DNA of 64,000 bases from an uncultured delta proteobacterium. GTDB taxonomy: Bacteria > Desulfobacterota > Binatia > JACPRU01. The stretch lies in contig CAWBOU010000016.1 in NCBI GenBank assembly GCA_963790365.1, forward strand, positions 141,783 to 205,782, in the 5' to 3' direction. The notes beneath the pieces were generated by a model. That model did not search any database and was not told where the DNA came from. It worked only from the letters and a program-made list of their open reading frames with translations. Position numbers and translations under genes: made by a program. Positions 17,254-58,651 of this stretch are shown piece by piece. The first letter of the stretch is position 1. Each line of letters opens with the position of its first letter.

Positions 17254-17372
17254 GGCGGGGGCAAAGCGTACGCGAATAGCGGATACGCCCCCCAGCCGCA
17301 ATTCGGCCTCCCCGCACTTTCTCGTCGACTTTCGGAAAGCCTCGGGGCTAGAGGACGCTTCGTTCCAGGCAG

Positions 17373-21242: not shown

Positions 21243-23504
21243 ATGATTCGATCGCGACGAACTTTCCTCACCGCGTCGGTGCGTGGGCTGCTCTTCGCCG
21301 CTCTCTGCATCGCGTGCAGCAAGCCACCGCCGCCGAACGTCTTGATCGTGACGTTCGACACCGCTCGTTACGATCGGTTCGGGTTCGCCGGGGATCCGCA
21401 CGCGGTCACTCCCCACGTCGACTCGCTCGCAGCCCGTGGCGTGAGCTTCGATCAGGCTTACTCGAGCGTACCGCTCACCCTTCCCGCGCACACCACGATG
21501 ATGACCGGGCTCGAGCCGTTCGAGCACGGCGTGCACAACAACGGCCACTTTCAGGTGCCGGACTCCGTGCCGACGCTCGCCGAGATCTTGCGGAACGCTG
21601 GATACGACACGGCCGCGTTCGTCTCCGCCGCCGTGCTCGAGGCACAGCACAAGCTCTCTCGCGGTTTCGACGTCTACGACGACGACACGAACAAGCGAAG
21701 CGGCACGCTCGACACGAGCGTGCCGAAGCGGCGCGGTGACGAGACGACCACCGCGGCGATCCGCTGGCTCGACCGGCGAAGCCGGGGCTCTCGGCCCTTC
21801 TTCCTCTGGATCCATTACTTCGACCCCCATCGTCCCTACCAACTGCCGGCGGCCTACGAGAGAAAGAGCGACCGCTACGCCGCGTCGATCTCGTTCGCCG
21901 ATGCCGAGCTCGGGCGCGTTCTCGAACGGGTCGCCGACGTCGAAGGCGAGCGCGGAACGCTCGTGCTCTTCACGTCGGACCACGGCGAGGGTCTCGGCGA
22001 GCACGGCGAGTCGACGCATGGGCTCGTGGCGTACGACTCGACCTTGCGGGTTCCGCTGATCATGAGCGGCCCCGGCGTCCCGAGCGGCATCCGCAGCGCG
22101 GTGCTGACGGGCCACGCGGACATGGTGCCGACGGTCCTCGCCGCCACCGACTTGCGGGCACCGTCGCCGGTCTCGGGTCGGAGCCTCTTCGACGCTGCTC
22201 GCGAAGACACGTCCGACGCCGACTCCGCGGTGCGGTACTTCGAATGCGAAGCGGCGCACTTCGAGTTCGGATGGGCGCCGCTCGCCGGCATGCGCACGGC
22301 TCGTTGGAAGTACACGGCGACGCCCGATCCGCCGGAGCTCTACGACGTGCTCGCGGATCCCCACGAGCTCCACGACCTCGTCGATCGAGAGCCCGAGGTG
22401 CGCGTGAGAATGGAGGAACGGTGGGCGAAGATCCGCGCGCGACGTGAGGCGGGCACGCCCGATGCACGGCTCGTCGGCGTCTCGCTCGAGACCATGGAGC
22501 GACTCGCCGCGCTCGGGTACGTGCAAGCGCCGCAGACGTTCGCACCCGGGGAGCAGCCGGACCCGCGTAAGTTCGTTGCCACACAGGATTGGATGGATCG
22601 CGCCCGCGATCTCGCTCGCGCGGGCAAGTTCGCTCCCGCGATCGAGCAGCTCGAAGCGCTCCGTCAGAGCTCCTCGATCCGCGTGCTCGTGCTCCGCACC
22701 TTGGCGCCGATGTATGCGGAGGCGGGTCGGCTGGAGGACTCGATCCGCACGTTTCGCGAGTACATCGATCTCGCGCAGACCGAGGAATCGCGGCTCGGCC
22801 TCGCGCGCGTCCTGATCGCGGCCGATCGCTCGGCGGAGGCGCTCGCGTTGCTCGACGGGCTCGAGCAGCGCGACGCGGCGAGCGTGGTCACGCTTCGCGC
22901 GGTCGCGCTCGCCGATCTGGGGCGCCGGGACGAGGCGCGAGCGTTGATCGACGAGAAGCTCGAAGGCACCGAACGCCAGCGGCTGCGAGCGGTCGTGGTG
23001 ATCGAAGGCGCGCCCTTCGACGGCGGCGAAGCGGAGTTGCGTGCTCTCGCCGCCGAAGCGCCGGATGATCCGCGGTTGAAGAGTTGGCTCGGATACTACC
23101 TCGCGATCTGGGGTCGGCCCGACCAGGCGGAGGAGGCGCTCCGGCTGCTGCGGGCGACCGCGAAGGCGCATCCCCTCGACGCCGAGTTCCACGCCAACCT
23201 CGGTTGGGCTGCGTATCGACTCGGGCAGAACGACGAGGCGCTCGCCGAGCTCGCGGCGGCGCTCCGCATCGACGGCACTCGACAGCGAGATCGCTTCCGT
23301 CTCGCGTTCGCGCTCGCTCGGCACGGCGAACGCGAGCGCGCGATCGGTCTCTTGAAGGACGCGGTCGCCGCTCGACCGGGCGCCGCGTGGGCGAAAGAGG
23401 AGGCACCGCGGATGATCGCGTTGCTCGAACGGTCGACGAACGGGCGACCGCAAGGAAAGAAGGCCGAAGCGTCGCTGCGCGAGCTCGCGCGCGCGGGGGA
23501 CTGA
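21243..23504 (+). CDS. Sulfatase-like (PF00884-type) hydrolase/transferase fused to C-terminal TPR; lipoprotein (paralogue S1)
   Basis: This is the in-frame part of track 19650..23504, from ATG 21243 (MIRSRRTFL..CIAC). It has 'NVLIVTFDTARYDRFG', 'PLTLPAHTTMMTGLEPFEHGVHNN', 'FLWIHYFDPHRPY', 'FTSDHGEGLGEHGE' and the hinge 'LAALGYV', followed by TPR-like helices. Confidence 0.85.
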   Translation: MIRSRRTFLTASVRGLLFAALCIACSKPPPPNVLIVTFDTARYDRFGFAGDPHAVTPHVDSLAARGVSFDQAYSSVPLTLPAHTTMMTGLEPFEHGVHNNGHFQVPDSVPTLAEILRNAGYDTAAFVSAAVLEAQHKLSRGFDVYDDDTNKRSGTLDTSVPKRRGDETTTAAIRWLDRRSRGSRPFFLWIHYFDPHRPYQLPAAYERKSDRYAASISFADAELGRVLERVADVEGERGTLVLFTSDHGEGLGEHGESTHGLVAYDSTLRVPLIMSGPGVPSGIRSAVLTGHADMVPTVLAATDLRAPSPVSGRSLFDAAREDTSDADSAVRYFECEAAHFEFGWAPLAGMRTARWKYTATPDPPELYDVLADPHELHDLVDREPEVRVRMEERWAKIRARREAGTPDARLVGVSLETMERLAALGYVQAPQTFAPGEQPDPRKFVATQDWMDRARDLARAGKFAPAIEQLEALRQSSSIRVLVLRTLAPMYAEAGRLEDSIRTFREYIDLAQTEESRLGLARVLIAADRSAEALALLDGLEQRDAASVVTLRAVALADLGRRDEARALIDEKLEGTERQRLRAVVVIEGAPFDGGEAELRALAAEAPDDPRLKSWLGYYLAIWGRPDQAEEALRLLRATAKAHPLDAEFHANLGWAAYRLGQNDEALAELAAALRIDGTRQRDRFRLAFALARHGERERAIGLLKDAVAARPGAAWAKEEAPRMIALLERSTNGRPQGKKAEASLRELARAGD

Positions 23505-25253: not shown

Positions 25254-25416
25254 GCCGCTCGGTCTTCTCGCAGGCTCTAGCATCCGGCCGAGAGGGTTGC
25301 CACCGGCTTGACGCCCATCAGTCCGGCTGTCACAACGGCCCGCTATCGCAGTGTTCATCTCCGTACCCCGGCCGTCCCTGCGTCTGCGACTCGTCGGAGC
25401 GCCGCTCGGGAGGAAA

Positions 25417-27651
25417 GTGAGCAAGCTCGGCGGTTGCGTCGTCCTCGCGATCGCGCTCGCCGGCTGCACCCGAACGCCGCCACCGAACGTCTTGATCGTG
25501 ACCCTCGATACCACCCGCTACGATCGCTTCGGCTACAGCGGCGACGAAGAAGCGAAGACTCCCGTCACGGATGCGCTCGCCCGCCGCGGGGTTGCGTTCG
25601 ATCAGGCCTTTGCCAGCACGCCGCTGACGCTGCCCTCGCACACCTCGATCCTGACGGGCCTCGAGCCGTTCGAGCACCGTGTGCGCAACAACGGAAACTT
25701 CAAGGTGCCCGAGGGGCTCGACACGCTGGCGGAGCGGTTGACGAGCGCCGGCTACGACACTGCGGCGTTCGTCTCGGCGATGGTCTTGCACTCGCGCTAC
25801 GGCCTGAACCAGGGCTTCGCGACGTACGACGACCAGATCTCCGCCGCCCGCAAAGTCCTCGACTTCACGATCCCCCGCCGCCACGGCACGGAGACGACCG
25901 AAGCGGCGCTCGGCTGGTTGCGCGCGCGCCCCGCCGACCGACCGTTCTTTCTCTGGGTGCACTACTTCGATGCTCACATGCCGCACGAGCTGAAGCCGCC
26001 CTACGACTCGGTGGCGGACGGCTACGCGGCGGCTTTGTCCTACCAGGACGAGGAGCTCGGTCGCCTGCTCGATGGCGTCGCCGGGGCCGAGGGCAAACGA
26101 GGAACGATCGTCGTCTTGACCGCGGATCACGGGGAGAGCCTCGGCGAACATGGCGAGAAGACGCATGGCACCGTCGCCTACGATTCGACGCTGCACGTTC
26201 CGCTCATCGTCGCGGGCCCCGGTGTTCCGGCCGGCCGTCGCAGCGACGCCTACGTCCGGCACGCCGACATCTTCCCGACGGTGATGGACGCGACGGGCCT
26301 CGCGAGCTCTACGCCGCTTTCCGGGCGAAGCTTGGTGCGGCTCGCGCGGAAAGCATCGGACGACGAAACGGTCGTCGGATACTTCGAGAACCACGGGCCT
26401 CACGAAGATCTCGGCTGGAGCAAGATCGAGGGTGTGCGGAACGCACGGTGGAAATACACGGCGTTGCCCGAGCCGGCCGAGCTCTACGACGTCCGCGCGG
26501 ACCCGGAAGAAGCTCTGAACTTGATCGAGTCGAGCCCCGAGGCCCGCGAGCAGATGGAGTCGCTCTGGCACGACTTGCCTCGCGTTCAGGAGGCGGAGTC
26601 GGAGGAGGCGCGTCTCGACGAGGTGACGGCCGAGGCGCGCGAGCAGCTCGCGTCACTCGGCTACGTCCAGGCGCGACGGGAGTTCGCTGCGGGGGACGCC
26701 CCCGATCCGCGCAAGTTCGTATCGGTGCATGACTGGGTGGAGGCGGCAGCGTTTCTCGCGAGCGCGGGGCGCTACGCGGAGGCGCTCGAGCGCCTGGAGA
26801 CGCTCGCCCGGAGCCCGTCGGTCGAAGTGCTCGTGCTCCGCACGCTCGCTCCCGTGTACTCGCTCCTCGGACGGCTCGAGGATTCGATCGGCGCGTATCG
26901 ACGCTACGCCGAGCTGACCGGCGCGGAGGATGCCCACCTCGGGCTCGCGCAAACGCTTCTCCGCGCCAAGCGACCGGAGGAGGCGCTCGCCGAGCTGGAG
27001 CGCCTCGATGCGCGATCTTGGAAGGTCGCCACCGAGCGCGCCGCCGTCCTCGTTCGACTCGGACGCGGCGCCGAAGCACGCGCCGCGATCGATCTCGCAT
27101 TCGCCGCGCCCGAGCTACAGCGAGAGCGTCTCACGCGGCGCTCGGCGTTGGTGATGGAGCGTCCGCCCGACGCCGACGGGGAACGTGAGTTGCGAAGCCT
27201 CCTCGCCGAGGCTCCGGATGATCCGCTGTTGAAGAGCCGACTCGGGACTTACCTCGTCCGGCTCGGGCGCCGCGAGCACGGCGACGAAGCGCTCGTGCTG
27301 CTCCGTTCGGCAGCGGCCTCGAGCCCGGACGATTTCGAGTTGCTCGCGAGCCTGGGTTCGGCGGAGTTCGAGCTCGGATACGACGAGCAAGCGATCGCGA
27401 CGTTGCAAAACGCGCTGCGCATCGGTGGGCGGCGGCCCGGTGACCTCTACCGGATCGCGCTGCCGATGCTTCGCCGCGGCGATCGCGAAGGCGCGCTCAC
27501 GAGCTTGCGGGAGGCGCTCGACCGCGAGCCCGGCGCGCGATGGGCGAAGAATGCTCGCCGCCTCGTCGCGAAAATCGAGCGCGCCGTGCAGGCCGAAGCG
27601 AAGAAGTCGAGCCATGCGTCGCCGACGCAGAAAGCGAACCGAAAAAGTTGA
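25417..27651 (+). CDS. Sulfatase-like hydrolase/transferase-TPR fusion; lipoprotein (paralogue S2)
   Basis: Track ORF 25351..27651. I prefer GTG 25417, which has GGAGGA upstream (VSKLGGCVVLAIALAGC). It has 'NVLIVTLDTTRYDRFG', 'PLTLPSHTSILTGLEPFEHRVRNN', 'FLWVHYFDAHMPH', 'LTADHGESLGEHGE' and 'LASLGYV', followed by TPR. Confidence 0.85.
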   Translation: MSKLGGCVVLAIALAGCTRTPPPNVLIVTLDTTRYDRFGYSGDEEAKTPVTDALARRGVAFDQAFASTPLTLPSHTSILTGLEPFEHRVRNNGNFKVPEGLDTLAERLTSAGYDTAAFVSAMVLHSRYGLNQGFATYDDQISAARKVLDFTIPRRHGTETTEAALGWLRARPADRPFFLWVHYFDAHMPHELKPPYDSVADGYAAALSYQDEELGRLLDGVAGAEGKRGTIVVLTADHGESLGEHGEKTHGTVAYDSTLHVPLIVAGPGVPAGRRSDAYVRHADIFPTVMDATGLASSTPLSGRSLVRLARKASDDETVVGYFENHGPHEDLGWSKIEGVRNARWKYTALPEPAELYDVRADPEEALNLIESSPEAREQMESLWHDLPRVQEAESEEARLDEVTAEAREQLASLGYVQARREFAAGDAPDPRKFVSVHDWVEAAAFLASAGRYAEALERLETLARSPSVEVLVLRTLAPVYSLLGRLEDSIGAYRRYAELTGAEDAHLGLAQTLLRAKRPEEALAELERLDARSWKVATERAAVLVRLGRGAEARAAIDLAFAAPELQRERLTRRSALVMERPPDADGERELRSLLAEAPDDPLLKSRLGTYLVRLGRREHGDEALVLLRSAAASSPDDFELLASLGSAEFELGYDEQAIATLQNALRIGGRRPGDLYRIALPMLRRGDREGALTSLREALDREPGARWAKNARRLVAKIERAVQAEAKKSSHASPTQKANRKS

Positions 27652-27685: not shown

Positions 27686-30241
27686 ATGAATCGATGGTTC
27701 CGAATTTTCGCGACTATCCTGTGGATCGGGGTCGCCACGGCGTCCTGCAGCAAGCGGATCGAGGGGCCGAACGTGGTGCTGATCACGCTCGATACGACCC
27801 GCGCCGACCGCCTGGGCACGATGGGTTACAAACAAGCGCAGACTCCGGTGCTCGACGCGCTCGCCACGCGCGGCGCCGTCTTCGAGCGTGCGTACAGCTC
27901 CGCACCGATCACGCTGCCGTCGCACACGACGATGCTGACGGGGCTCGAGCCCAATCGGCACCGCGTCCACAACAACGGCGCGTTCGTCGCTCCGCCCTCG
28001 CTCGAGACGTTGCCGGAGCGACTGAAGGAGCGCGGATATCGTACGGGCGCGTTCGTGAGCGCGTTCGTGATCGATCGGGCGTTCGGCCTCGATCAAGGCT
28101 TCGACGTCTACGACTCCGATACTCCTCAGGATTATCAGCCGCCGATCGTGATGATCCCCAAGCGCAACGGCAGCGACACGACCGACAATGCACTCACGTG
28201 GGTGAAGGGCGTCGGCGACGCTCCGTATTTTCTGTGGGTCCACTATTACGACGTCCATATTCCGCGGTACGCGCCTGCCCCCTTCAACAAGATCCCCGAT
28301 CGCTACGATGGCGCGCTCGCGTACGTCGATTCTCAGATCGGGCGCCTGTTGGCCGACGTCGAGAAGACGGCGAACGGACGCGAGACGCTGATCATCGTCA
28401 CCGCCGACCACGGGGAGAGCCTCGGCGCGCACGGGGAGCTCACTCACGGCGGATTGGTCTACGACTCGTCGCTCCACGTGCCGATGATCGTGGCCGGACG
28501 CGGGTTTCCCGCGGGGACGCGGTCCCGCAACTTCGCGAGGACTTCCGACGTCACGCCGACGGTGCTCGCCGCCGTCGGGGCGCCGCTCCCGACGGACCTG
28601 GACGGCCGCCCGCTGCAGAATCGGCTGGCCAAGGAGGACGAAGCGGAAACCGCGTACTTCGAGACGATGCTTCCGTCGAGCGATTTCGGTTGGGCGCGCC
28701 TTGCCGGCATTCGCACGCCGCGCTGGAAGCTGACCGGAGAGCCGCTTCCCGTCGAGCTCTTCGACGTGATGGCCGATCCCGAGGAGGCCGCGGATCGTGC
28801 GACGCAAGCGCCGGACGAGGTCGCGCGGTTGACCAAGGCGTTCGAAGCGATACGCGCCGCGCCGCTCACGGAGCGTTCGGAGATGCCCGCGGAAGTCGAA
28901 GAGAAGCTCGCGGCTCTCGGCTACGTCGCCCAGGCGCAGCGCTTCGAGCCCGGCAAGGAGCCCGATCCGCGAACGGCGATCGGCGCGATCACCCTCGTGC
29001 AGATGTCCCGAACGCTCTTGTCCGAGGGCAAGGTCGGCGAATCGATCGAAATGCTGGAGCTCTTCGGCCAGAGCCCGATCGCCGCGCCGATCGCTTGGCG
29101 GATGCTCGGTCCGCTGTACGTGCGCGCGGGCCGGTACGACGACGCGGTCGAGACCTACAAACAGCTCGCGGCGTCGACGAACAACATCCAGATCGAGATC
29201 CAGATGGCCGGCGCTCTCCTGATGGCCGAGCGTGCGACGGAAGCGCTCGAGTTGCTCGACGAGATCGAGAAGGCTTCTCCGGCGCGCGCTTCCCTGCTCC
29301 AGCTCCTGCGCGGTCGCGCGCTGCTCGCGGTGAACAAGCCGGAAGAAGCGATCAAGGTCGCCGCGCCTGTGCTCGAAGAGGATCCTTGGAACGACGCCAT
29401 GCTGGAGGTCGAGAGCGCCGCGCGCGCGAAGCAGGACGAGGTCGCGGAGATCGGGCGCCTCCAGCAACTCATCCGGAAGGCACCCAAGACAACGAAGCTC
29501 GTCGAGACTCGCGGTTGGCTCGCGCGTCTTTTGCACCGCCGGGGGCGTGATCGTGAAGCGAGAGAGCTCATCGATGCGGTAGCCAATCCTCCGCTCGAGC
29601 AGCAAGCGTTGCTCGCCGACATCGCGGCCGCGCACGGCGATGTCGAACGAGCCGTGAAGATCTACGAGAAGCTCGTCGCCTTGCTACCCGAGGGTGTCGA
29701 CTTCGCGCGGAGCCTCGCACGGCTCTACGTCGGGGTCGGTCGACACGACGACGCGCTGAAAACTTACGAGAGAGTGATCGCCGCGAATCCCAAGGACCCG
29801 TCGTCCTACGTCGATCGCGGCGCCCAGCTCTTCCGCCTGAAGCGCGTCGCCGAAGCGGAGCAGGACTATCGCAAGGCTCTCGCGCTCGACGAGCGGCAGC
29901 CCGAGGCCTCGTTCAACCTCTCGTTGTTGCTGCTGCGCAAGGGCGCCGACGGCGAAAAGGAGGCGGAGAAGTGGCTGCTGAAGGCGGTGGAGCAGCGGCC
30001 CGAATACGCCAAGGCGCACTACCACCTCGCGCGGCTTTACAATGCGCGCAAGGATCCGCGCGCGGCGACCCACGCAGAGAAGGCGGCCGCCGCATCGAGC
30101 GCAGCTCGAACGGCCGCGGCCGGAGCAGCGAGCCGTGGTCTCGGACGAGCTGGCTCCGCGGCGACCAAAGTCGAGAAAGTCGAGGGGCAGGTCGGCTCCG
30201 TTGAGGGGCAGACTGGCTCGCCCGCAACGAAAACGCGCTGA
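27686..30241 (+). CDS. Sulfatase-like hydrolase/transferase-TPR fusion; lipoprotein (paralogue S3)
   Basis: This is the in-frame part of track 27425..30241. ATG 27686 lies 34 nt after the S2 stop (MNRWFRIFATILWIGVATASC). It has 'NVVLITLDTTRADRLG', 'PITLPSHTTMLTGLEPNRHRVHNN', 'FLWVHYYDVHIPRY', 'VTADHGESLGAHGE' and 'LAALGYV', then a long TPR region and an Ala/Ser/Gly-rich tail. Confidence 0.85.
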   Translation: MNRWFRIFATILWIGVATASCSKRIEGPNVVLITLDTTRADRLGTMGYKQAQTPVLDALATRGAVFERAYSSAPITLPSHTTMLTGLEPNRHRVHNNGAFVAPPSLETLPERLKERGYRTGAFVSAFVIDRAFGLDQGFDVYDSDTPQDYQPPIVMIPKRNGSDTTDNALTWVKGVGDAPYFLWVHYYDVHIPRYAPAPFNKIPDRYDGALAYVDSQIGRLLADVEKTANGRETLIIVTADHGESLGAHGELTHGGLVYDSSLHVPMIVAGRGFPAGTRSRNFARTSDVTPTVLAAVGAPLPTDLDGRPLQNRLAKEDEAETAYFETMLPSSDFGWARLAGIRTPRWKLTGEPLPVELFDVMADPEEAADRATQAPDEVARLTKAFEAIRAAPLTERSEMPAEVEEKLAALGYVAQAQRFEPGKEPDPRTAIGAITLVQMSRTLLSEGKVGESIEMLELFGQSPIAAPIAWRMLGPLYVRAGRYDDAVETYKQLAASTNNIQIEIQMAGALLMAERATEALELLDEIEKASPARASLLQLLRGRALLAVNKPEEAIKVAAPVLEEDPWNDAMLEVESAARAKQDEVAEIGRLQQLIRKAPKTTKLVETRGWLARLLHRRGRDREARELIDAVANPPLEQQALLADIAAAHGDVERAVKIYEKLVALLPEGVDFARSLARLYVGVGRHDDALKTYERVIAANPKDPSSYVDRGAQLFRLKRVAEAEQDYRKALALDERQPEASFNLSLLLLRKGADGEKEAEKWLLKAVEQRPEYAKAHYHLARLYNARKDPRAATHAEKAAAASSAARTAAAGAASRGLGRAGSAATKVEKVEGQVGSVEGQTGSPATKTR

Positions 30242-30405
30242 GTTGTTTGACAAGGGCGCGGAAAACGAAGTAGACAGCCGCCTGTGATTCGTAGTGGCGC
30301 GAATGCCGCCGGCTGGACGAGGGGTTAGACAGAAGCTGACCGCATGTCCGGCGCGGTGGTCTTTTCGAAATTCAACCTGACACGAAGATTGCGGAGGACG
30401 GAACA

Positions 30406-31047
30406 ATGAAGGCGGTGAATCGGATGGGTTGGCTGCTGAGCCTCGCAGGCGCGTTGCTGCTGACGGCGACCACGAGCTGGGCGGGGTACGGTGAGCGGAC
30501 GGACGTTCTCTCCTCGAACGGCGAATCGTTCACGAACGCCGGCATCGATGACGACGGTAACTTCGTGTTCGACAACGCCTATGGCGTTTACAACTACAAC
30601 TCGTACAACTACGGCTACATCTACCGCACGGTGACGACGCCCGGCGGGAACGCGTCGGTGTACGCGGCCTTCGCCGTCGACGAGCCCGATCTCGTCGAGC
30701 GCGAGAGCGGCAAGTCGAAGCTCAAGTCGAGCGACCAGCTCTTCGTCGAGGATGTGACCCTGTACTCGGCGGGCGGACTCGGCACCGTTGCGAACGCGGC
30801 CGACACCTTCAACCTCCCCGGCTGCAAGGGCAAGATCAAGCTCCAGGGCCCGCCGGCCCCCTACTCCCCGACCGACACGAGCAGCGCAGCGACTGCCGTC
30901 ACGGTGGTCAACTGCACCGAGCCGGCGTTGGCGGCGCTCTTCCCGGATGCCACGGTTCGCGCCCGCGTGCAGGAGCTGATCGGTACGCGTGACGACGGCA
31001 CCGGCCTCAAGTTCAAGGGCGCCGGACTCGTCGATACGGACCTCTAA
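30406..31047 (+). CDS. Secreted protein of unknown family, triplet copy 1
   Basis: Track ORF with GGAGGA 8 nt upstream. It has a Sec signal ending ..TTSWA|GYGERTD and a mature ~187 aa. Motifs are GIDDDGNFVFDNAY, YNYNSYNYGYIYRTVTTPGGNASVY, two Cys residues, and the C-terminus GLVDTDL. Confidence 0.85.
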   Translation: MKAVNRMGWLLSLAGALLLTATTSWAGYGERTDVLSSNGESFTNAGIDDDGNFVFDNAYGVYNYNSYNYGYIYRTVTTPGGNASVYAAFAVDEPDLVERESGKSKLKSSDQLFVEDVTLYSAGGLGTVANAADTFNLPGCKGKIKLQGPPAPYSPTDTSSAATAVTVVNCTEPALAALFPDATVRARVQELIGTRDDGTGLKFKGAGLVDTDL

Positions 31048-31094
31048 TCGATTCGGATCAGGCGACCTCCTAAGCAAGAGGAGAGGGGATACCA

Positions 31095-31724
31095 GTGAAA
31101 CTCGGCAAAGCTCTGGCGACGGCAATTGCGGTGTTGTGCCTGACCAGCCCGACCTGGGCGGGTTATGGCGAGCGGACGGACGTGCTGTCCTCCGCTGGTG
31201 AATCGTTCACGAACTCCGGCATCGACGACGACGGCAACTTCGTGTTCGACAATGCGTACCTCGTCTACAACTACAACTCGTACAACTACGGCTACATCTA
31301 CCGCACGGTGACGACCCCGGGCGGGAACGCGTCGGTGTACGCGGCCTTCGCCGTCGACGAGCCCGATCTCGTCGAGCGCGAGAGCGGCAAGTCGAAGCTC
31401 AAGTCGAGCGACCAGCTCTTCGTCGAGGACGTGACCCTCTACTCGGCGGGCGGACTCGGCACGGTCGCGAACGCGGCCGACAGCTTCAACCTCCCCGGTT
31501 GCAAGGGCAAGATCAAGCTGAATGGCCCGCCGGCTCCCTACGATCCGACGGCAACCGATACTGCGGCAACCGGCGTGACGACCGTCAAGTGCACCGAGGC
31601 GGCGATGGCGGCGCTCTTCCCGGACGCCACGGTTCGCGCCCGCGTGCAGGAGCTGGTCGGTACGCTTGACGACGGCACCGGCCTCAAGTTCAAGGGCGCC
31701 GGACTCGTCGATACGGATCTATAG
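31095..31724 (+). CDS. Secreted protein of unknown family, triplet copy 2
   Basis: Track ORF with a GTG start and GAGGAG upstream. The signal ends ..SPTWA|GYGERTD. The mature region is a close paralogue of copy 1. Confidence 0.85.
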   Translation: MKLGKALATAIAVLCLTSPTWAGYGERTDVLSSAGESFTNSGIDDDGNFVFDNAYLVYNYNSYNYGYIYRTVTTPGGNASVYAAFAVDEPDLVERESGKSKLKSSDQLFVEDVTLYSAGGLGTVANAADSFNLPGCKGKIKLNGPPAPYDPTATDTAATGVTTVKCTEAAMAALFPDATVRARVQELVGTLDDGTGLKFKGAGLVDTDL

Positions 31725-31763
31725 AAACGCACAGCTTCTTAAGGACAAGCGAAAGGATCGAGA

Positions 31764-32402
31764 ATGAAAGCATCGAAACTTCTGGTAACGGTGTTCGCCA
31801 TCGCGACCGCGGTCTGCTTCGCGAGCCCGAGCTGGGCGGGCTACGGTGAGCGGACCGACATCCTGTCGACGAACGGCGAGTCGTTCACGAACTCCGGCAT
31901 CGACGAAGACGGCAACTTCGTCTTCGACAACGCGTACTCAATCTACAGCTACAACTCCTACAACTACGGCTGGATCTACCGGACCGTGACGACGCCGGGC
32001 GGGAACGCTTCGGTGTACGCGGCCTTCGCCGTCGACGAGCCTGATCTCGTCGAGCGCGAGAGCGGCAAGTTGAAGCTCAAGTCGAGCGACCAGCTCTTCG
32101 TCGAGGACGTGACTCTCTTCTCGGCGGGCGGACTCGGCACGGTCGCGAACGCGGCCGATAGCTTCAACCTCCAAGGCTGCAAGGGCAAGGTCAAGCTCAC
32201 CGGGCCGCCGGCTCCGTACTCCCCGACCGACACCAGCAGCGCAGCGGCGGGCGTCGCGGTCGTCAACTGCACCGAGGCCGCGCTCGCGGCGCTCTTCCCG
32301 GACGGCACGGTTCGCGACCGCGTACAGGAGCTGCTCGGCACGCGTGATGACGGCACCGGCATCAAGTGGAAGGCGACCGGGCTCGTCGATACCGATCTCT
32401 AG
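31764..32402 (+). CDS. Secreted protein of unknown family, triplet copy 3
   Basis: Track ORF with AAAGGA upstream. The signal ends ..SPSWA|GYGERTD. This is the most diverged copy (for example GWIYRT and GIKWKATG). Confidence 0.85.
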   Translation: MKASKLLVTVFAIATAVCFASPSWAGYGERTDILSTNGESFTNSGIDEDGNFVFDNAYSIYSYNSYNYGWIYRTVTTPGGNASVYAAFAVDEPDLVERESGKLKLKSSDQLFVEDVTLFSAGGLGTVANAADSFNLQGCKGKVKLTGPPAPYSPTDTSSAAAGVAVVNCTEAALAALFPDGTVRDRVQELLGTRDDGTGIKWKATGLVDTDL

Positions 32403-32440
32403 ATCGCGCAGCCTCTAACCAAACATCAATTCAACGAAGT

Positions 32441-32483
32441 GCGGGTCGGTCGCGCTCAGGCACGACCGGCCCGCGCCGTTTTT
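32441..32483 (+). terminator. Candidate intrinsic terminator after the triplet array
   Basis: The stem gcgggtcggtcg (32441-32452) pairs with cgaccggcccgc (32463-32474). That is 12 bp including one G-U pair, with a 10-nt loop. After a gccg spacer comes TTTTT (32479-32483), a rare run in this GC-rich DNA. Confidence 0.5.
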
Positions 32484-32490
32484 GGGAAGC

Positions 32491-33048
32491 ATGAAGAAAC
32501 TCGTTTTCACCACGCGAATCGCGTTCGCCTGCACGATGCTGCTCGGCTGGATCGTGGCGGGCTGCTCCAAGGAGTCGCCTTCCGCCGCTCTACCATCGGT
32601 CGACGCGGGTGAGGTTGCCGCTGCGGTTTCCGCGGATGGCGAGGTGACTCTCGCCGCCAACCAGGTGACGCGCCAAGCGGCACTCAAGGAGCTCGCGCGC
32701 GCCGCCAAGTTCGAGCTCGTCGTCAAGCCGATCGACAAGACCGAACAGACGACCCTGCGGCTCGAAGGTGTTTCCCTGGACGATGCGGTCGAGAAGCTCG
32801 CTGGAGGAGATCCCTACTTCTTGTCCTACAAGTTCGACTCGGCGACCTCGCGGCACGTGCTGCAAACGGTGGCCGTCGGCGAGCACCAGGACGCGCGCTC
32901 GATCCATCTCAAACGGCGCCGCGAGCGGCGCGCGAAGATCGACCTCAGGAAGAAAGAGCTCCTGAAGCAGAAGCAAGAGCGCGAGGCGACAGGGGAGGCA
33001 CCGCCGTCTCCGTCAGCGGCCGAAACCCCGACCGCTCCGCTGAGCTAG
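32491..33048 (+). CDS. Lipoprotein with an STN-like domain and a Lys/Arg/Glu-rich tail
   Basis: Track ORF 32482..33048. I prefer ATG 32491 (MKKLVFTTRIAFACTMLLGWIVAGC). 'VTLAANQVTRQAALKELARAAKFELVV...TLRLEGVSLDDAVEKLAG' resembles a secretin/TonB short N-terminal (STN) domain. It is followed by 'KRRRERRAKIDLRKKELLKQKQERE'. It is a paralogue of 36057..36791. Confidence 0.55.
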   Translation: MKKLVFTTRIAFACTMLLGWIVAGCSKESPSAALPSVDAGEVAAAVSADGEVTLAANQVTRQAALKELARAAKFELVVKPIDKTEQTTLRLEGVSLDDAVEKLAGGDPYFLSYKFDSATSRHVLQTVAVGEHQDARSIHLKRRRERRAKIDLRKKELLKQKQEREATGEAPPSPSAAETPTAPLS

Positions 33049-33929: not shown

Positions 33930-33936
33930 GGGTCTC

Positions 33937-35502: not shown

Positions 35503-35505
35503 GCC

Positions 35506-35952: not shown

Positions 35953-36056
35953 CCGATGCGAGCGTCGCGCCGGGGCGGCGTCGTCGCCGGGCCGAGCCCT
36001 AGCACAACGATCGAGAGGTCGCACTCTGGGAGCCTGCTTTTCGCCCTAGACCCGGC

Positions 36057-42596: not shown

Positions 42597-42627
42597 CACT
42601 TCTCTCGCAATGACGGTTCCGTGTGCT

Positions 42628-47551: not shown

Positions 47552-49525
47552 GTGATGTCGATGCGGAGCGACGATCGACCGGGAATTCCGGTCTGGATTG
47601 CAGCCACACTCCTGATCTCGAGCCCCGTGCTCGCCGCGGATCCACCGGCCGCGAAGGAGACGAAAGCGGCGGAGGAGCGGATCGTCCCAGTCCCGAAGCG
47701 CGATATCGGCGCGGAGACGCTCGAGGCGAGGAAGGCCCATCAGCTGAAGAAGGCGAAGGAGTACAAGGTCTTCCACGACTTTCAGTTCGCCGACCTGCTC
47801 CCCGAGAGCGGCATCACCTTCTTGAACCGGATCACGCCCGATTCCGCGAAAGACCGGATCGCCGTTCACTATGACCACGGCGACGGGCTCGTCGCCTCCG
47901 ACGTCGACGGCGACGGCAAGCTCGACATCTACTTCGTGAGCCAACTGCCGGGAAATCAGCTCTGGAAGAACCTCGGCGGCGGCAAGTTCAAGAACATCAC
48001 CGCCGAGGCCGGTGTGGGAATGCCTGGCGAGATCAGCGTCGCCGCGACGTTCGCGGACATCGACAACGACGGTGACGCCGATCTCTACGTGACCACCGTC
48101 CGTACTGGAAACATGCTGTTCGAGAACGACGGCAAGGGCAAATTCAAGGACATCTCCAAGCAGTCCGGCCTCGATTACGTCGGACACTCTTCGGGCGCGG
48201 TGTTCTTCGACTACAACAACGACGGCCGACTCGACTGCTTCCTCGTGAACGTGGGTAAGTACACGGGCGACAAGCAGGGCGTCGACGGTTACTACATCGG
48301 GCACGCCGACGCGTTTCACAGCCACCTTCGTCCCGAACGGAACGAGCCGAGCGTCCTCTACCGCAACGAAGGCAAGAACCGTTTCGTCGACGTGACCAAG
48401 GAAACGGGCTTGGTGGAGGAGAGCTGGAGCGGCGACGCGAGCATCGTCGATCTCAACGAAGACGGTTGGCTCGACGTCTACGTTCTCAACATGCAGGGCA
48501 ACAACCACTACTTCGAGAACCAGAAGGGGGAGAAGTTCGTCGACAAGACCTCACAGCACTTCCCGAAGACCTCGTGGGGAGGCATGGGGATCAAGTTCTT
48601 CGACTTCGACAACAACGGTCACCCCGACCTCTACGTGACCGACATGCACTCGGACATGGGCGAGGCGGCGATCGCGGCCCGACCGAAGGACGAGAAGAAG
48701 AAGTACCTCCCGCCGGTTCCCGAGCAAGCCAAGACCGTGCTGCGCGGCTGGGAGACGAGCGTCTTCGGCAACTCGTTCTACTTGAATCTCGGCGGCGGCA
48801 AGCTGGAAGAAGTCTCCGACAAGATCGGCGCGGAGAACTACTGGCCGTGGGGCCTCAGCGTCGCCGATTTGAACGCCGACGGGTGGGATGACGCCTTCGT
48901 CGCTTCGAGCATGAACTTCCCGTTCCGGTACGGGATCAACTCGGTTCTGCTGAACGAGGACGGCAAGGTCTTCCGCGATAGCGAGTTCGCGGTCGGCGTC
49001 GAGCCTCGGCGTGACGGACGGACCAAGATTCCCTGGTTCGAGATCGAGTGCGACGGCCCCGACAAGAAGCACGAGCTCTGCAAGGACCGCCAGGGGCATT
49101 GGACGGTGCACGCGAATCTCGGCTCACGCTCCTCCGTGATCTTCGATCTCGACGACGACGGCGACCTCGACATCGTCACGAACGAGTTCAACTCGGAGCC
49201 GATCGTGTTCGTGAGCAATCTCTCCGAGAAGAAGAAGATCAACTGGCTGAAGGTCGTGCTCGAAGGCACGAAGTCGAACCGCGACGCCGTGGGTGCGACC
49301 GTCAAGGTGACCGCCGGCGGCAAGGTGTATACGAAGTGGAATGATGCGACGTCCGGCTATCTGTCGCACGGCGTGCTGCCGCTCTATTTCGGCCTCGGTG
49401 AAGCGACCAAGGTCGACAAGGTCGAGGTTCGCTGGCCGTCGGGAAAAGTTCAGGAGACGACGACCGGCATCGAGGTCAACAAGCCGCTGAAGATCAAGGA
49501 AGAGGGCTCGGCGAAGTCATCCTGA
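47552..49525 (+). CDS. CRTAC1-type FG-GAP/ASPIC secreted protein
   Basis: Track ORF. It has a signal peptide, multiple D-x-D-x-D-G loops (DVDGDGKLD, DIDNDGDAD, DYNNDGRLD, DLNEDGWLD, DFDNNGHPD, DLNADGWDD, DLDDDGDLD) and the ASPIC tail 'NWLKVVLEG..GATVKVTAGG...LYFGLGEATKVDKVEVRWPSG'. Confidence 0.85.
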   Translation: MMSMRSDDRPGIPVWIAATLLISSPVLAADPPAAKETKAAEERIVPVPKRDIGAETLEARKAHQLKKAKEYKVFHDFQFADLLPESGITFLNRITPDSAKDRIAVHYDHGDGLVASDVDGDGKLDIYFVSQLPGNQLWKNLGGGKFKNITAEAGVGMPGEISVAATFADIDNDGDADLYVTTVRTGNMLFENDGKGKFKDISKQSGLDYVGHSSGAVFFDYNNDGRLDCFLVNVGKYTGDKQGVDGYYIGHADAFHSHLRPERNEPSVLYRNEGKNRFVDVTKETGLVEESWSGDASIVDLNEDGWLDVYVLNMQGNNHYFENQKGEKFVDKTSQHFPKTSWGGMGIKFFDFDNNGHPDLYVTDMHSDMGEAAIAARPKDEKKKYLPPVPEQAKTVLRGWETSVFGNSFYLNLGGGKLEEVSDKIGAENYWPWGLSVADLNADGWDDAFVASSMNFPFRYGINSVLLNEDGKVFRDSEFAVGVEPRRDGRTKIPWFEIECDGPDKKHELCKDRQGHWTVHANLGSRSSVIFDLDDDGDLDIVTNEFNSEPIVFVSNLSEKKKINWLKVVLEGTKSNRDAVGATVKVTAGGKVYTKWNDATSGYLSHGVLPLYFGLGEATKVDKVEVRWPSGKVQETTTGIEVNKPLKIKEEGSAKSS

Positions 49526-51122
49526 CGTCGCCGAGCTCCGACTCCCGACGCTTCGGGCGCTCGGGGGGATCGTAGCGGTAGTACGCGTGGCCGATGATCG
49601 CCGTCGGTTGCGCGTGCGCGATCCAGTTCTCCGCGGAGTCGCCGTACTCGAGCGACAGTACGGCGCGCACTCGCGCGGCGTAGTGCGCGCTGAGGAACAG
49701 CGTGCGCCGTGGGGGCCGGAGGGCTCTCCGCCAGGGTATTCGGGGACCGGTCACGCCGTAGAGCTCCGGTGACACCGAGCCGAAGTGGCAGATCACATAT
49801 TCGGTGACGCCCTCTCGCTCGAGATACTCGCGGAGCTGGATCAGGCCCTGTCCCCAGTCGACGTTCGACTCGTCGAGCCACTCGGGGCCGTGCCGGGAAC
49901 CGCCGGCGAGCTCGTTGAAGTACGAGAGGTGGTCGGGCGCGACCGTCACGAACGCGGTCGCCTGCCAGAGGAGGAGCGCGCCGACGATCGCCGCGACGGC
50001 CGGTTTCCGTGCCGAGAGCACGAGACCGATCCGGCCGGCGAAGACGTAGAGGAAGGGCGAAACCGGGATCAGGTACCGCACCCCCAAGCTCGGCGCGAGA
50101 GCGGTGACGAGCGCCGCGAAGGCGACCGCGGGAGCGATCAGCGACGCTTCTTCGAGCGCCGTCGTCCTCCGTCCTCGGAAGAACAGAGCGACGGAAAGCG
50201 CGAGGAGCAGGATCGTCGCGAGCGGCGTCTTGAGGAGCCAGGCGATCGGGAAGTAGCGCAGGTCCCGGCCTTCCTGGATCTCTCCCAGCAGCACGTAGTC
50301 GAAGCCCGCGCGGTGGTCGCTTTCCAGGCTCGTGAGCCCGTTCCAATAAAAGGCCGGATCGCGGGGGAAGAGGTAGGTCGCCCACACGACGAGCGCGGCG
50401 AGCGCGAGAAGAGCGCCGAACGGGACAGCGGCGCGGAGGATACGCGTGCGCGGCGTGCGCGACCACGTCCAAAGCGCGAGCGCGAGCGGCGGAAGCACGA
50501 TCGCCGTGAACTTCGTCGCGAGGGCGAGCCCGAGCGCGACGGCGGATGCGAGCAGCGGAATCGTCGATTCCGAACGAAGCGCGTGCCGGAAGAGGAAGAA
50601 GAAGAGCGTCGCAAAGCACGCGAGCGGAACGTCGGTGGTGATCAATTGCGCGTGAGCGGTGATCGTCGGGTCCGTCACGTAGAGAAAGAGCGACAACAGC
50701 GCTCCGCGTGCCCCCCAGAGCTGATACGACCAGACCGTGACGAGCGCGGCCAAGCCGAACGAAAGCGCGATCGCGGGGAGGCGACACCAGGGAAGGATCG
50801 CTTGCACGTCGTTCGCGTCGAAGAAGAGCTTTCCGAAGCGCCATTGATACGTCGTGAAGACTGCCTGTTCGATCTCCTGTTCCGTCGCCGGCATGCGGGC
50901 GCCGAGCAAGAGGAGCGGAACGGCCGCGAGCTCCTTGACGAGCGGCGGATGCATCGGATTGAGCACGATTTTCCCGGTCTGGAGATACGAGTACCCGGCG
51001 GAAAGATGGACGACTTCGTCGTAGGTGATCGACTTTCGCAGCGAGAATGCGAGCGGCAGCACGAGCGCGGCCATCAGCAGCGCGGCGATGAGGATCCGCT
51101 CCGGACGTGAAGTGGTAGCCAA
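49494..51122 (-). CDS. GT-C glycosyltransferase, family 39 (ArnT/PMT-like)
   Basis: Track ORF. It has about 11-12 helices. The first periplasmic loop carries 'SITYDEVVHLSAGYSYL..NPMHPPLVKEL' (the DE motif of PMT/ArnT enzymes). It has a C-terminal soluble domain. It overlaps 47552..49525 convergently by 32 nt. Confidence 0.7.
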   Translation of the reverse strand: MATTSRPERILIAALLMAALVLPLAFSLRKSITYDEVVHLSAGYSYLQTGKIVLNPMHPPLVKELAAVPLLLLGARMPATEQEIEQAVFTTYQWRFGKLFFDANDVQAILPWCRLPAIALSFGLAALVTVWSYQLWGARGALLSLFLYVTDPTITAHAQLITTDVPLACFATLFFFLFRHALRSESTIPLLASAVALGLALATKFTAIVLPPLALALWTWSRTPRTRILRAAVPFGALLALAALVVWATYLFPRDPAFYWNGLTSLESDHRAGFDYVLLGEIQEGRDLRYFPIAWLLKTPLATILLLALSVALFFRGRRTTALEEASLIAPAVAFAALVTALAPSLGVRYLIPVSPFLYVFAGRIGLVLSARKPAVAAIVGALLLWQATAFVTVAPDHLSYFNELAGGSRHGPEWLDESNVDWGQGLIQLREYLEREGVTEYVICHFGSVSPELYGVTGPRIPWRRALRPPRRTLFLSAHYAARVRAVLSLEYGDSAENWIAHAQPTAIIGHAYYRYDPPERPKRRESELGDVRMTSPSPLP

Positions 51123-51146
51123 AATCCGCTAGACGCGCGCTTCGCG

Positions 51147-53027
51147 ATGCCGAGAAAACGCAATCGGACGAGCGAAGAGGCTCCGCGCGCACGGACACTG
51201 CCCCGGGCGCTCGCCGCGATCGTCGCGCTGATCGCGTTCCTGCAATACGCGAACACGCTCGGCCACGAGTTCACCTTCGACGACGGAGCGGTGATCAGCG
51301 AGAACGTGCTGACTCAACGGGGTGTCGCCGCGATCCCGAAGATCCTCTCGTCCACGTATCGCGAGGGATCGCTGACGAGGGACTTGAATCTCTATCGCCC
51401 GCTCTCGCGGGTCGTGTTTGCCGCCCAGTGGGAGCTGTTCCCCGGCGACCCGCGGGCGGGTCATTGGACGAACGTTCTCCTGTTCTCCCTCACCGCCGTC
51501 CTCCTGTTGTTCACGATCCATGCGTATGGCGCCGATCTCCGTTTCGCATTCGTCGCCACGTTGCTGTTCGTCGTCCATCCCATCCACACCGAGGTCGTCG
51601 CCAGCATCAAGAGTCTCGACGAGATATTGGCGTTTCTTTTCTTCCTCGTCACCATGCTGTTTGCGCGCCGTCACCTCGCGTCCGGTGCGAAATGGCAGCT
51701 CGCGGTCGCGTCGCTCGCGTTTTTCCTGGCTCTGCTGTCCAAGGAATCCGCGCTCACGTTCCTCGTCGTCGTGCCGTTCGCGGTGTGGATGTTCACCGAG
51801 GCGACGAGAGCGAGACAGGTCGCCGTCGCCGGCGCGCTCGTCGGTTCGACCGTCGCCTACTTCGCGCTCCGGACGAGCCTGCTCGGCCTTCCCCAGGTCG
51901 GGCGGATCCTCGCTCTCGACAACGTCCTCTACGATGCGACCGCGGCCGATCGTTTCGCGACCGCCGTTTCTCTACTCGGCCGCTATCTGCGCTTGCTCGT
52001 CGTTCCCCATCCCCTCGTCGCCGACTATTCCTACGCGCAGATCCCGCTGCTCGGTCTCGGCGACCCGAGGTTTTGGGCCTCGTTGCTCGCTCTCGCCGTC
52101 CTCGGCGTCGTCGCCGTGGCGACGATATCGAGGAGCCGATGGCTCTCGTTCGGAATCGCGTATTTCTTCCTGACCGCGGCGATCGTTTCGAACGTCTTCT
52201 TCCTGATCGGCACCGCGTTCGCCGAGCGGGTGATGTACGCGCCGTCGCTCGGCGTCTGCGTCGTGGCCGCCGCGGCGTGGGCGCGTCTCCTCGGCGAGAC
52301 GGACGGGCGCGAGCCGACGGATCTGCGCTCGTTCTTCTCCGTCCGAACGGTCGCGTGGCTGCCGATCGCGGTGTTGACCGTGCTCTTCATCGGCAAGTCC
52401 GTCCTGCGGAACCGCGATTGGCACGACAACTTTTCGCTCTTCTCGGCGGACGTGCAGCGCTCGACGAACAGCGCGCGACTCCACTACCTGCTGGGACAGC
52501 TCCTGTCGCAGCGGGGCCAAGTCGATGCGGGGATGCCGGAGCTCGAGACCGCGACTCGCCTCTACCCGCGGTTCGGCGACGCGTACAACGCGATCGGCAG
52601 AATCCAACTCGATCGCGACGACGTGACGAGCGCCGAGGCGAGCTTCGGGAAGGCGATCGAGCTCGACGGGCGCAACCCGATCTACCGAAACAACTACGGC
52701 AGTGTCTTCATGAGGAAAGGACAACTCGCCGAGGCCAAGGAGCAGTTCGAAGCCGCGCTGCGAGGCTACGAGTGTTACGCCGACGCGTACTACAACCTCG
52801 GGGCCGTGCACGGCACGCAGGGACAGATGAGTCGCGGTGAACCGATGGTCGCGAGGTCTCACTTCCAAGAGGCGATCACGAATTTCGAGAAGGCTGTGCG
52901 CTGCAACCCTCGCTTCGCGGCGGCGCACTTCGCGCTCGGAATGACATACCGTCAGTTGGGCGAGGAACAGACGGCCCGGCGCTCTCTTCAGCGCGCGCGC
53001 GAGCTCGGGTACCGGCCCGGACGATAG
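51147..53027 (+). CDS. TMTC-like GT-C membrane protein fused to TPR (DUF1736-type)
   Basis: Track ORF. It has 'LGHEFTFDDGAVISENV' (the first-loop acidic pair as in TMTC O-mannosyltransferases), about 10 helices, 'AERVMYAPSLG', and then C-terminal TPRs ('YPRFGDAYNAIGRIQL', 'CYADAYYNLGAV', 'NPRFAAAHFALGMTY'). Confidence 0.7.
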   Translation: MPRKRNRTSEEAPRARTLPRALAAIVALIAFLQYANTLGHEFTFDDGAVISENVLTQRGVAAIPKILSSTYREGSLTRDLNLYRPLSRVVFAAQWELFPGDPRAGHWTNVLLFSLTAVLLLFTIHAYGADLRFAFVATLLFVVHPIHTEVVASIKSLDEILAFLFFLVTMLFARRHLASGAKWQLAVASLAFFLALLSKESALTFLVVVPFAVWMFTEATRARQVAVAGALVGSTVAYFALRTSLLGLPQVGRILALDNVLYDATAADRFATAVSLLGRYLRLLVVPHPLVADYSYAQIPLLGLGDPRFWASLLALAVLGVVAVATISRSRWLSFGIAYFFLTAAIVSNVFFLIGTAFAERVMYAPSLGVCVVAAAAWARLLGETDGREPTDLRSFFSVRTVAWLPIAVLTVLFIGKSVLRNRDWHDNFSLFSADVQRSTNSARLHYLLGQLLSQRGQVDAGMPELETATRLYPRFGDAYNAIGRIQLDRDDVTSAEASFGKAIELDGRNPIYRNNYGSVFMRKGQLAEAKEQFEAALRGYECYADAYYNLGAVHGTQGQMSRGEPMVARSHFQEAITNFEKAVRCNPRFAAAHFALGMTYRQLGEEQTARRSLQRARELGYRPGR

Positions 53028-53051
53028 CGCTCCTCGCCGTCGCGAGCGGCG

Positions 53052-58569: not shown

Positions 58570-58651
58570 AGGCGTTCGCCTCCAACGGCGAGCAGCTCGC
58601 CTCGCGAGCGCGGCATTCTACCCCAGGAAACCGTCGGTTTTCCGTCCGTTC

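Follow-up and report, generated by a model that had tools for sequence, protein, structure and literature searches.

A Binatia-restricted family of small exported proteins encoded beside sulfatase-fold TPR lipoproteins

What are three tandem genes for small secreted proteins that a preliminary description, made from the sequence alone, could place in no family? The genes lie in a 64,000-nucleotide stretch from an uncultured delta proteobacterium of the Binatia lineage (assembly GCA_963790365.1, contig CAWBOU010000016.1, positions 141,783 to 205,782 of the forward strand), which was analyzed at its full length and is called the window here. We find that they are paralogues from a family of small exported proteins that had not been described before and is restricted to Binatia, and that family genes follow directly on a conserved pair of genes for lipoproteins that combine a sulfatase fold with tetratricopeptide repeats (TPRs). 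The reading that we favor, with a probability of about one half, is that each small protein is a soluble, disulfide-stabilized periplasmic beta domain and a dedicated client or partner of these TPR-tethered phosphoesterase/transferase-like lipoproteins.

The three genes (copies 1–3, Table 1) are organized as first described: they are on the same strand, encode 213, 209 and 212 residues, and are separated in the list of open reading frames (ORFs) by spacers of 47 bp between copies 1 and 2 and 39 bp between copies 2 and 3. A purine-rich, Shine–Dalgarno (SD)-like site can be read from the sequence 5' of each copy (GGAGG, GGAGAGGGG and AAGGA). GC content at third codon positions is 0.85–0.87 in the three copies, with a pattern at positions 1 and 2 like that of real genes in the window, where overall GC content is about 67%. 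At each N-terminus a basic n-region and a hydrophobic core are followed by (S/T)-W-A ahead of G-Y-G-E-R-T-D, a signal of the signal peptidase I (SPase I) type, and none of the three N-termini contains a lipobox. These sequences bear out the proposal of Sec export with a divergent signal peptide for each copy, and every motif quoted in the preliminary description is found in the copies. Its count of exactly two Cys residues holds for the mature part; in full-length copies 2 and 3 the signal peptide contributes a third Cys. The mature proteins, called near-identical, share a more modest 84–91% identity (81–86% for full-length copies).

Codon-level comparison of the copies gives a synonymous divergence (dS) of 0.32–0.40 over the mature part, with a ratio of nonsynonymous to synonymous divergence (dN/dS) of 0.17–0.25, while the signal peptides are saturated (dS 0.6–2.1). 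The mature protein evolves under purifying selection, with dN/dS about 0.2. Constraint is strongest in the N-terminal beta region (dN/dS 0.07–0.18), and a loop bracketed by the two cysteines has the highest dN (0.10–0.23); its dN/dS of 0.24–0.30 indicates relaxed constraint, not positive selection. That loop had been taken for the sole substitution-rich segment, and it is the most variable one, but the C-terminal part varies too. A central block of about 120 nt has 96–100% nucleotide identity between copies, and metagenomic relatives of the copies show mosaic patterns, which together indicate local gene conversion. Arrays of three copies are present in the window and in loci L001, L002, L052 and L057, and the copies of an array group by lineage in a tree, as expected from repeated amplification or concerted evolution. 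The repeated amplification to three copies and the gene conversion of the core point to dosage as the selected trait, alongside some diversification of the exposed loop. An assembly expansion of one gene, which we also considered, is ruled out by the unrelated signal peptides and spacers, by the synonymous divergence of 0.3–0.4, and by the three-copy layout of the four other loci, which are independent assemblies.

A probable intrinsic terminator closes the array (Table 1). The hairpin has a folding energy of −40.3 kcal/mol (z = −3.85), and none of 200 shuffled sequences was as stable; a scan for consensus promoters and terminators around the array returned nothing useful and missed this hairpin. 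The 165-bp gap 5' of copy 1 holds a long imperfect hairpin of its own (30305–30365, plus strand) followed by CUUUUC. It is not significantly stable (z = −1.7), and could act as an attenuator, a partial terminator or a processing site.

Database searches uphold the view that the proteins belong to no recognizable family. Pfam returns no family for copies 1 and 2, and for copy 3 it returns DUF7433 alone, at E 0.17 and 12 bits against a cut-off of 24.2. NCBIfam, PHROGs and PADLOC contain no match for the window copies, distant and divergent members find nothing in the family libraries either, and a profile of 20 members has no matches to PDB sequences at E up to 10. A full-text literature search returned nothing relevant on the family.

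Relatives are rare. A search of 5.8 billion clustered proteins returned only nine clusters with 75% identity or more, and an exhaustive search of 1.84 billion representatives with a hidden Markov model (HMM) gave seven representatives, down to 27% identity; a profile search added a few further members, one of them annotated from a Candidatus Binatia metagenome-assembled genome (MAG). Direct searches of GTDB species representatives, including one with the alignment of close relatives, detected no family locus. A degenerate DNA pattern for the C-terminal Q-x-L-I-G-x3-D-G-T-G-x-K hit 48 genome loci that all proved to be chance matches, for example inside MiaB-like genes, and a stricter pattern found one JGI metagenome contig (L052). 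When the enzyme encoded upstream of the array was used as an anchor, the nearest genomes were retrieved at 47–54% identity. These are soil MAGs of Candidatus Binatia or of 'uncultured delta proteobacterium', and in seven of them (L053–L058 and L061) the ORF directly downstream of the enzyme fits the family HMM (E 3e-12 to 2e-3). Two of the family genes, in L053 (8460–9182) and L061 (10657–11328), lose similarity in their C-terminal halves, apparently through frameshifts, and this loss could reflect assembly error or pseudogenization. The divergent subgroup that these seven loci represent is itself rare, with nine clusters, all labeled 'hypothetical'. The named sources of the family are all Candidatus Binatia or unnamed 'delta proteobacterium' soil MAGs.

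Features shared across the superfamily begin with the signal peptide, which has a conserved Ala at −1, and continue directly after the cleavage site with (E/D)(R/N)(T/P)(D/E)(I/L), a motif that is kept down to about 27% identity and in the divergent subgroup. They further include an (L/V)xEPDxVxR segment, a K-x-S-D turn, a G-C-(K/N) motif with the second Cys 22–30 residues on in the members measured, and a helical segment ending in L-(I/L)-G. Each mature member has two Cys residues, no more or fewer. The DDDGN turn, the exact Tyr/Asn run, the Pro/Ser/Thr loop and the GLVDTDL tail are limited to a subgroup, and the 'Ca-loop-like' turn, initially listed as shared by the copies, and the Pro/Ser/Thr stretch are thus confined to members at least 75% identical and are not features of the family. 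The idea that the DDDGN turn binds calcium or a lanthanide, prompted by a nearby gene for a pyrroloquinoline quinone (PQQ)-dependent dehydrogenase, was rejected: the turn is not kept beyond the most closely related members, and the PQQ gene does not recur beside the family. A 'lysine ladder' forming an anion-binding surface was dropped in view of the family's range of isoelectric points (pI 4.3 to 9.3).

The genomic context of the family is its most informative feature. We compared the window with L002, two P0016 contigs, L003, L053–L058, L061, L074 and L076, and wherever a locus includes upstream DNA, its family genes, between one and three in number, come right after a pair of paralogous genes for sulfatase-fold TPR lipoproteins, termed A and B, and share their strand (Table 1). 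An orthologue of B is directly 5' of the family genes in all of these loci, and an orthologue of A holds the same position as in the window in L002, L053–L058 and L061. In this neighborhood survey, the association with TPR-fused phosphoesterase-like lipoproteins, which had been pointed out from the window alone, is the sole universal feature of the family's genomic context. The array had been placed right after three such lipoproteins; three do lie upstream on the plus strand, but the first of them, a more distal paralogue, is set apart from A and B by a minus-strand gene. The true start of A is probably at about 25417, and a fourth paralogue is encoded in the window at 40134–42680 (minus strand). 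In L074 and L076 the module is bordered by unrelated housekeeping genes and so looks self-contained. A fixed 1:1 ratio of enzymes to copies was considered and rejected, as L074 has two enzymes and three copies and L076 has two enzymes and one copy.

Although the enzyme directly upstream of the array has the sulfatase fold (Pfam E 5e-46), its formylglycine motif C/S-x-P-x-R is replaced by T-L-P-S-H, which in HMMER alignments stands opposite S-T-P-A-R, C-V-P-A-R and S-T-P-S-R of three solved sulfatases. Of the four paralogues of the window, the motif region was read in this one (27686) and in those starting at 25351 and 40134, and all three have T-L-P-S-H. Within the alkaline phosphatase superfamily, it is NPP-type phosphodiesterases and LtaS/EptA/PptA-type phospho-transferases, not sulfatases, that are characterized by a Thr nucleophile. 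The enzyme also has weak NCBIfam matches to the EptA/MCR and YejM families, its overall sequence is closest to true sulfatases, and its TPR region most resembles consensus TPRs and the TPR with which OGT recruits substrates (E about 7e-18). The 'sulfatase' and TPR lipoproteins of the window probably act as phospho(di)esterases or phospho-transferases and are prone to mis-annotation as sulfatases.

A structure of the small protein was predicted with AlphaFold2, and the result depended on the alignment supplied: 12 close homologues alone gave an unusable model (predicted local distance difference test, pLDDT, 42), while 20 diverse members, including some at 27–50% identity, gave a model of copy 1 with pLDDT 85 and a predicted TM-score (pTM) of 0.78. 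The model consists of an antiparallel meander (strands 37–47, 53–63, 68–77, 83–92, 96–101, 103–108 and 111–121, then shorter ones), a hairpin of strands 140–147 and 163–170 with the Pro/Ser/Thr segment as its 15-residue loop, a pair of short helices (172–192) and a last strand (201–210). The predicted fold is an up-and-down antiparallel beta domain that is probably barrel-like. Because the strands of the hairpin are antiparallel, C140 and C170 are cross-strand neighbors in the model, and they would form a disulfide that staples the variable loop.

Searches with the model using Foldseek returned no significant structural match, with a best E of 0.11 in the PDB (TM at most 0.42 by target and at most 0.29 by query) and 0.063 in BFVD. 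Query-normalized TM does not exceed 0.33, and the weak neighbors are mostly small up-and-down beta-barrels. The top, non-significant ones (OmpX, VtrC, lipocalin/avidin-type barrels and Ups1/PRELID) resemble the model in size and in their all-antiparallel meander, but they differ from it in that TM is 0.15–0.37, E is at least 0.06 and no sequence family is matched. For OmpX these values are TM 0.27/0.37 and E 0.25. Compared with these small barrels, the family adds the putative disulfide-stapled loop, a late helix-turn-helix and a hydrophilic composition. The grand average of hydropathy (GRAVY) lies between −0.04 and −0.36 in the 22 members that were trimmed to the mature part and is about −0.25 in the hydrophilic window group; three further members were scored untrimmed, with the signal peptide attached. 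A conserved Arg/Lys at position 74 lies on the hydrophobic face of core strand 68–77, and this basic residue, together with the hydrophilic composition, favors a soluble domain over an integral outer-membrane barrel.

The same data bear on the view that the family is an abundant structural component of the envelope, such as a lattice, a fiber subunit or an outer-membrane-associated protein, with the TPR lipoproteins as its assembly or anchoring factors. Repeated tandem amplification with gene conversion, strong SD sites, the strong terminator right after the array and beta strands rich in Tyr, Asn and Gly would all suit such a protein, and both the outer-membrane and other small beta-barrels in the weak Foldseek lists and the aromatic C-termini of the divergent subgroup (YWGVNY at the end) lean the same way. 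We nevertheless consider it rather unlikely, as no Foldseek match is significant (best E 0.06, TM at most 0.37), the C-terminus of the window group is VDTDL, with no aromatic beta-signal, the proteins are hydrophilic, Arg/Lys 74 is ill-suited to a lipid-facing surface, and the conserved module contains no usher, secretin or sortase-type assembly gene. Nor do the window proteins look like integral outer-membrane barrels in particular, given their non-aromatic GLVDTDL terminus, hydrophilicity, residue 74 and lack of a Pfam match to outer-membrane proteins, and the aromatic termini of the divergent subgroup leave a weak doubt on that exclusion. A type IV pilin, which would bring a disulfide 'D-region' loop, a class III signal peptide (F/M-T-L-x-E after the Gly cleavage site) and a hydrophobic N-terminal alpha-helix, was ruled out by the SPase I signal (S/T)WA before Gly, the polar mature start GYGERTD and the absence of an N-terminal helix from the mature model.

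The loop between the cysteines was at the center of the earlier suggestion that the triplet is the cargo of an O-mannosylation or Sdp-like island, in which the Pro/Ser/Thr stretch would be mannosylated by GT-C enzymes of the PMT_2/TMTC type. Its sequence, GPPAPY(S/D)PT(D/A)T(S/D)(S/T)AA, resembles the Pro/Thr-rich bacterial O-mannosylation sites known from actinobacterial Pmt substrates. The two PMT/TMTC-type genes reported within 20 kb are present at 49.5–53 kb, 17–19 kb from the array, and in L002 the gene right after the array of three copies is a PMT_2 gene. However, L002 is the only other locus with an adjacent PMT_2 gene, and the Cys loop of its proteins (FDAVNLEYDFG) has no Pro/Ser/Thr run; the loops of distant members are shorter and without Ser/Thr runs, so that a Ser/Thr-rich acceptor segment is not conserved. 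No GT-C gene lies within 10 kb of the modules in L074 and L076, and a loop dN/dS of 0.24–0.30 describes a segment that is constrained yet not conserved site by site. With the Pro/Ser/Thr run limited to the subgroup at least 75% identical, and neither the SdpAB-like genes nor, apparently, the PMT/TMTC-type genes conserved as partners, glycosylation of this kind is improbable and would at most be specific to the subgroup. A cargo of an O-mannosylation or Sdp-like island does not describe the family as a whole, but a partner or cargo of the TPR-phosphoesterase-like genes does. Genes for FG-GAP/ASPIC, HTTM and Phosphodiest proteins are variable neighbors.

As for the SdpAB-like maturation module said to lie about 650 bp away, the distance holds (the gene of a 294-residue membrane protein starts 643 bp past the array), but the family assignment does not. 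The gene belongs to a minus-strand operon (33045–36024) that converges on the array and encodes a 172-residue protein (with WKGGGFGMFS), a 521-residue multi-pass protein and the 294-residue protein. The 521-residue protein has an acidic VLVDTWGY motif after its first hydrophobic segment and is duplicated in L001; it has no Pfam, NCBIfam or PDB-chain match and is not detectably related to the L002 PMT_2 protein. The 294-residue protein shows faint HTTM-like motifs (NHKYL and K-x4-DYLDG), and the operon may be an unrecognized membrane enzyme system.

If the 294- and 172-residue proteins were maturation factors, the triplet could be the precursor of a secreted toxin or signal peptide like SdpC of Bacillus subtilis, an exported precursor of about 200 residues that it recalls, as a lead only, in size, signal peptide and two cysteines, with a multi-pass membrane protein with faint HTTM-like motifs nearby. 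BLASTP weakly aligns the 294-residue protein with the HTTM protein of the window (E 1e-4) across NHxYL and K...D(W/Y)L.G; hhalign, in contrast, gives a probability of 1.5%, and neither the 294- nor the 172-residue protein has any Pfam or NCBIfam match at E up to 10, be it to SdpA (PF17418), to SdpB/HTTM (TIGR04033) or to another family. Only the window and L001 have the 294-, 521- and 172-residue genes beside the family; L002, L053–L058, L074 and L076 lack them. Furthermore, the Bacillus subtilis system yields a short hydrophobic peptide, whereas here the whole mature protein is conserved and predicted to fold, has a negative GRAVY and contains no hydrophobic toxin-like segment. The Sdp-like origin is therefore very improbable, being largely refuted by the lack of co-occurrence.

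A further possibility, to which we give little credence, is that the small proteins work in the periplasm as inhibitors or as immunity-type proteins, neutralizing the adjacent phosphoesterase-like enzymes or related enzymes of competitors. MliC/PliC and Tli arrays are typical inhibitor and immunity genes, and by analogy a small disulfide-bonded periplasmic beta protein that is tandem-amplified beside an enzyme, with a variable loop and lineage-specific amplification, would fit. However, the enzymes are ordinary Sec lipoproteins without a toxin-delivery domain or secretion-system genes, the core is homogenized by gene conversion and not diversified, and there is no match in PADLOC or other families.

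Downstream of the terminator lies a gene for a small lipoprotein (Table 1), which we refer to as the 188-aa type. An HMM of this protein matches ORFs right after the family genes in L053, L055, L056 and L057 (E 1e-14 to 2e-19) and in L001, and in L002 the 188-aa type precedes them, so that, with the window, it adjoins family genes in seven loci. Judged by these neighborhoods, it is a fourth recurrent component of the module. It has no Pfam match apart from a weak TolA-like one that arises from the charged tail. In L074 (10922–11788) and L076 its N-terminal domain is fused to HEAT repeats (HEAT_2). The window encodes a second paralogue of the 188-aa type at 36057–36791 (plus strand).

Returning to the reading we favor, each copy would be exported via a cleavable Sec (SPase I) signal peptide, and its mature form, hydrophilic and about 187 residues long, would be released into the periplasm, where we infer that the TPR arrays of the lipoproteins recruit it. 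Once recruited, the small beta proteins would serve the phospho(di)esterase/transferase-like domains as dedicated clients or partners, in one of two ways: the small protein may itself be modified or demodified, or it may be a subunit without catalytic activity whose task is to bind the real substrate and present it. More tentatively, and with less confidence than in the general reading, the small protein may be the new-fold client of a new kind of periplasmic enzyme, a pair of TPR-tethered, Thr-nucleophile sulfatase-fold lipoproteins that covalently add or remove a phospho-form, or the barrel may be an obligatory substrate-presenting subunit, and together with the 188-aa type these genes may form a four-gene envelope-modification module specific to Binatota.

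Several observations weigh against the client or partner role. The superfamily has no invariant Ser, Thr or Tyr residue, which argues against a single conserved phospho-acceptor site, and net charge is not conserved either, the spread in pI weakening the case for a simple ligand-binding surface common to all members. Outside Binatia, Sulfatase-TPR homologues have no family-like downstream neighbor, and such enzymes can therefore work without the small protein. The hairpin-bearing gap before copy 1 makes co-transcription with the upstream genes uncertain. The proposed interaction between the small protein and the enzyme is drawn from genomic context, and the apparent novelty of the predicted fold is provisional, as judged against the PDB and BFVD.

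Table 1 Coordinates of the array and associated features (positions are those of the window)
Feature	Coordinates	Strand	Details
Sulfatase-fold + TPR lipoprotein, third, more distal paralogue	21243..23504	+	Pfam Sulfatase E 2e-46, Phosphodiest, TPR; lipobox LCIAC
Sulfatase-fold + TPR lipoprotein A	25351..27651	+	Pfam Sulfatase E 6e-45, TPR; lipobox LAGC; LDTTRYDR...TLPSH
Sulfatase-fold + TPR lipoprotein B, directly upstream of array	27686..30241	+	Pfam Sulfatase E 5e-46, Phosphodiest E 1e-14, many TPR; lipobox ATASC
Family copy 1	30406..31047	+	213 aa; signal peptide residues 1-26 (SWA before GY); mature 187 aa
Family copy 2	31095..31724	+	209 aa; sequence as in the copy-2 row of the P0004 alignment
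Family copy 3	31764..32402	+	212 aa
Probable intrinsic terminator closing the array	32439..32485	+	GC-rich hairpin with 14-bp stem, then UUUUU
Small lipoprotein, 188-aa type	32491..33048	+	Lipobox, alpha/beta domain of ~80 aa, K/R/E-rich tail
PMT_2/PMT GT-C glycosyltransferase	49494..51128	-	E 5e-9
TMTC-like TPR protein	51111..53027	+	Sub-threshold TMTC_DUF1736, 22 bits against a cut-off of 27

The rest of the window has the character of a large envelope-related island. Four FG-GAP/ASPIC (CRTAC1-like) proteins are encoded at 36788–40162 (plus), 45661–47418 (minus), 47552–49525 (plus) and 58520–60916 (plus), one of them with an N-terminal TPR region, and TPR-only proteins are interspersed. A gene for a haem-oxygenase-like iron redox enzyme (53028–53810) follows the PMT_2/TMTC pair, whose two genes are divergently arranged. 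Upstream of the module, a full-length bacterial protein with HTTM and VKGC lumenal domains, similar to vitamin-K-dependent gamma-carboxylase (17373–18755, plus; Pfam E 5e-71 and 8e-44), adjoins two paralogous type I phosphodiesterase/NPP proteins (13205–15367 and 15163–17385, both minus). The latter has an N-terminal hydrophobic segment ahead of its catalytic domain, and its orthologue, at 81% identity, flanks the L002 module. The PQQ-dependent dehydrogenase (18763–21146, minus; Pfam E 4e-83), which is not a conserved neighbor of the family, is paired with a cytochrome c gene; Binatota are reported to have a potential for methylotrophy and alcohol oxidation, with which this pair is consistent.

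In its logic the module resembles two groups of known systems, but it is a member of none, and the small protein itself fits none of the families and systems with which it was compared. Like OGT and TMTC1-4, the window enzymes join a catalytic domain to a long TPR array, which in those proteins is thought to recruit protein clients, and a candidate client, in a role we propose from context, is encoded next door to them. OGT and TMTC1-4 differ in having a glycosyltransferase fold, while the window enzymes have an alkaline-phosphatase/sulfatase fold and are predicted to be periplasmic lipoproteins. With PptA, EptC, LtaS and NPP the window enzymes share a Thr nucleophile, in T-L-P-S-H, in place of formylglycine, and PptA and EptC modify specific exported proteins. 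In PptA, EptC and LtaS, however, the lipid donor is taken by a multi-pass membrane domain at the N-terminus; the window enzymes, which are lipoproteins with a C-terminal TPR array, have no such domain.

Taken together, this is an orphan family that is new at the family level and that combines a confidently predicted, unmatched fold with a strictly conserved pair of partner genes. It is very rare and confined to one candidate phylum, which limits its practical reach. If our reading is correct, the triplet would represent a new family of exported proteins and possibly a new fold, and its fixed genomic partner would offer a testable handle on the large, uncharacterized group of 'sulfatase-like' TPR lipoproteins, whose routine annotation as sulfatases is mistaken, given that the formylglycine motif is missing. 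The module would be a periplasmic case of TPR-mediated client recruitment by an enzyme of the alkaline phosphatase superfamily. As a lineage-specific envelope module, it would also provide a rare concrete lead to the cell-surface biology of the Binatota, which are abundant in soils and uncultured.

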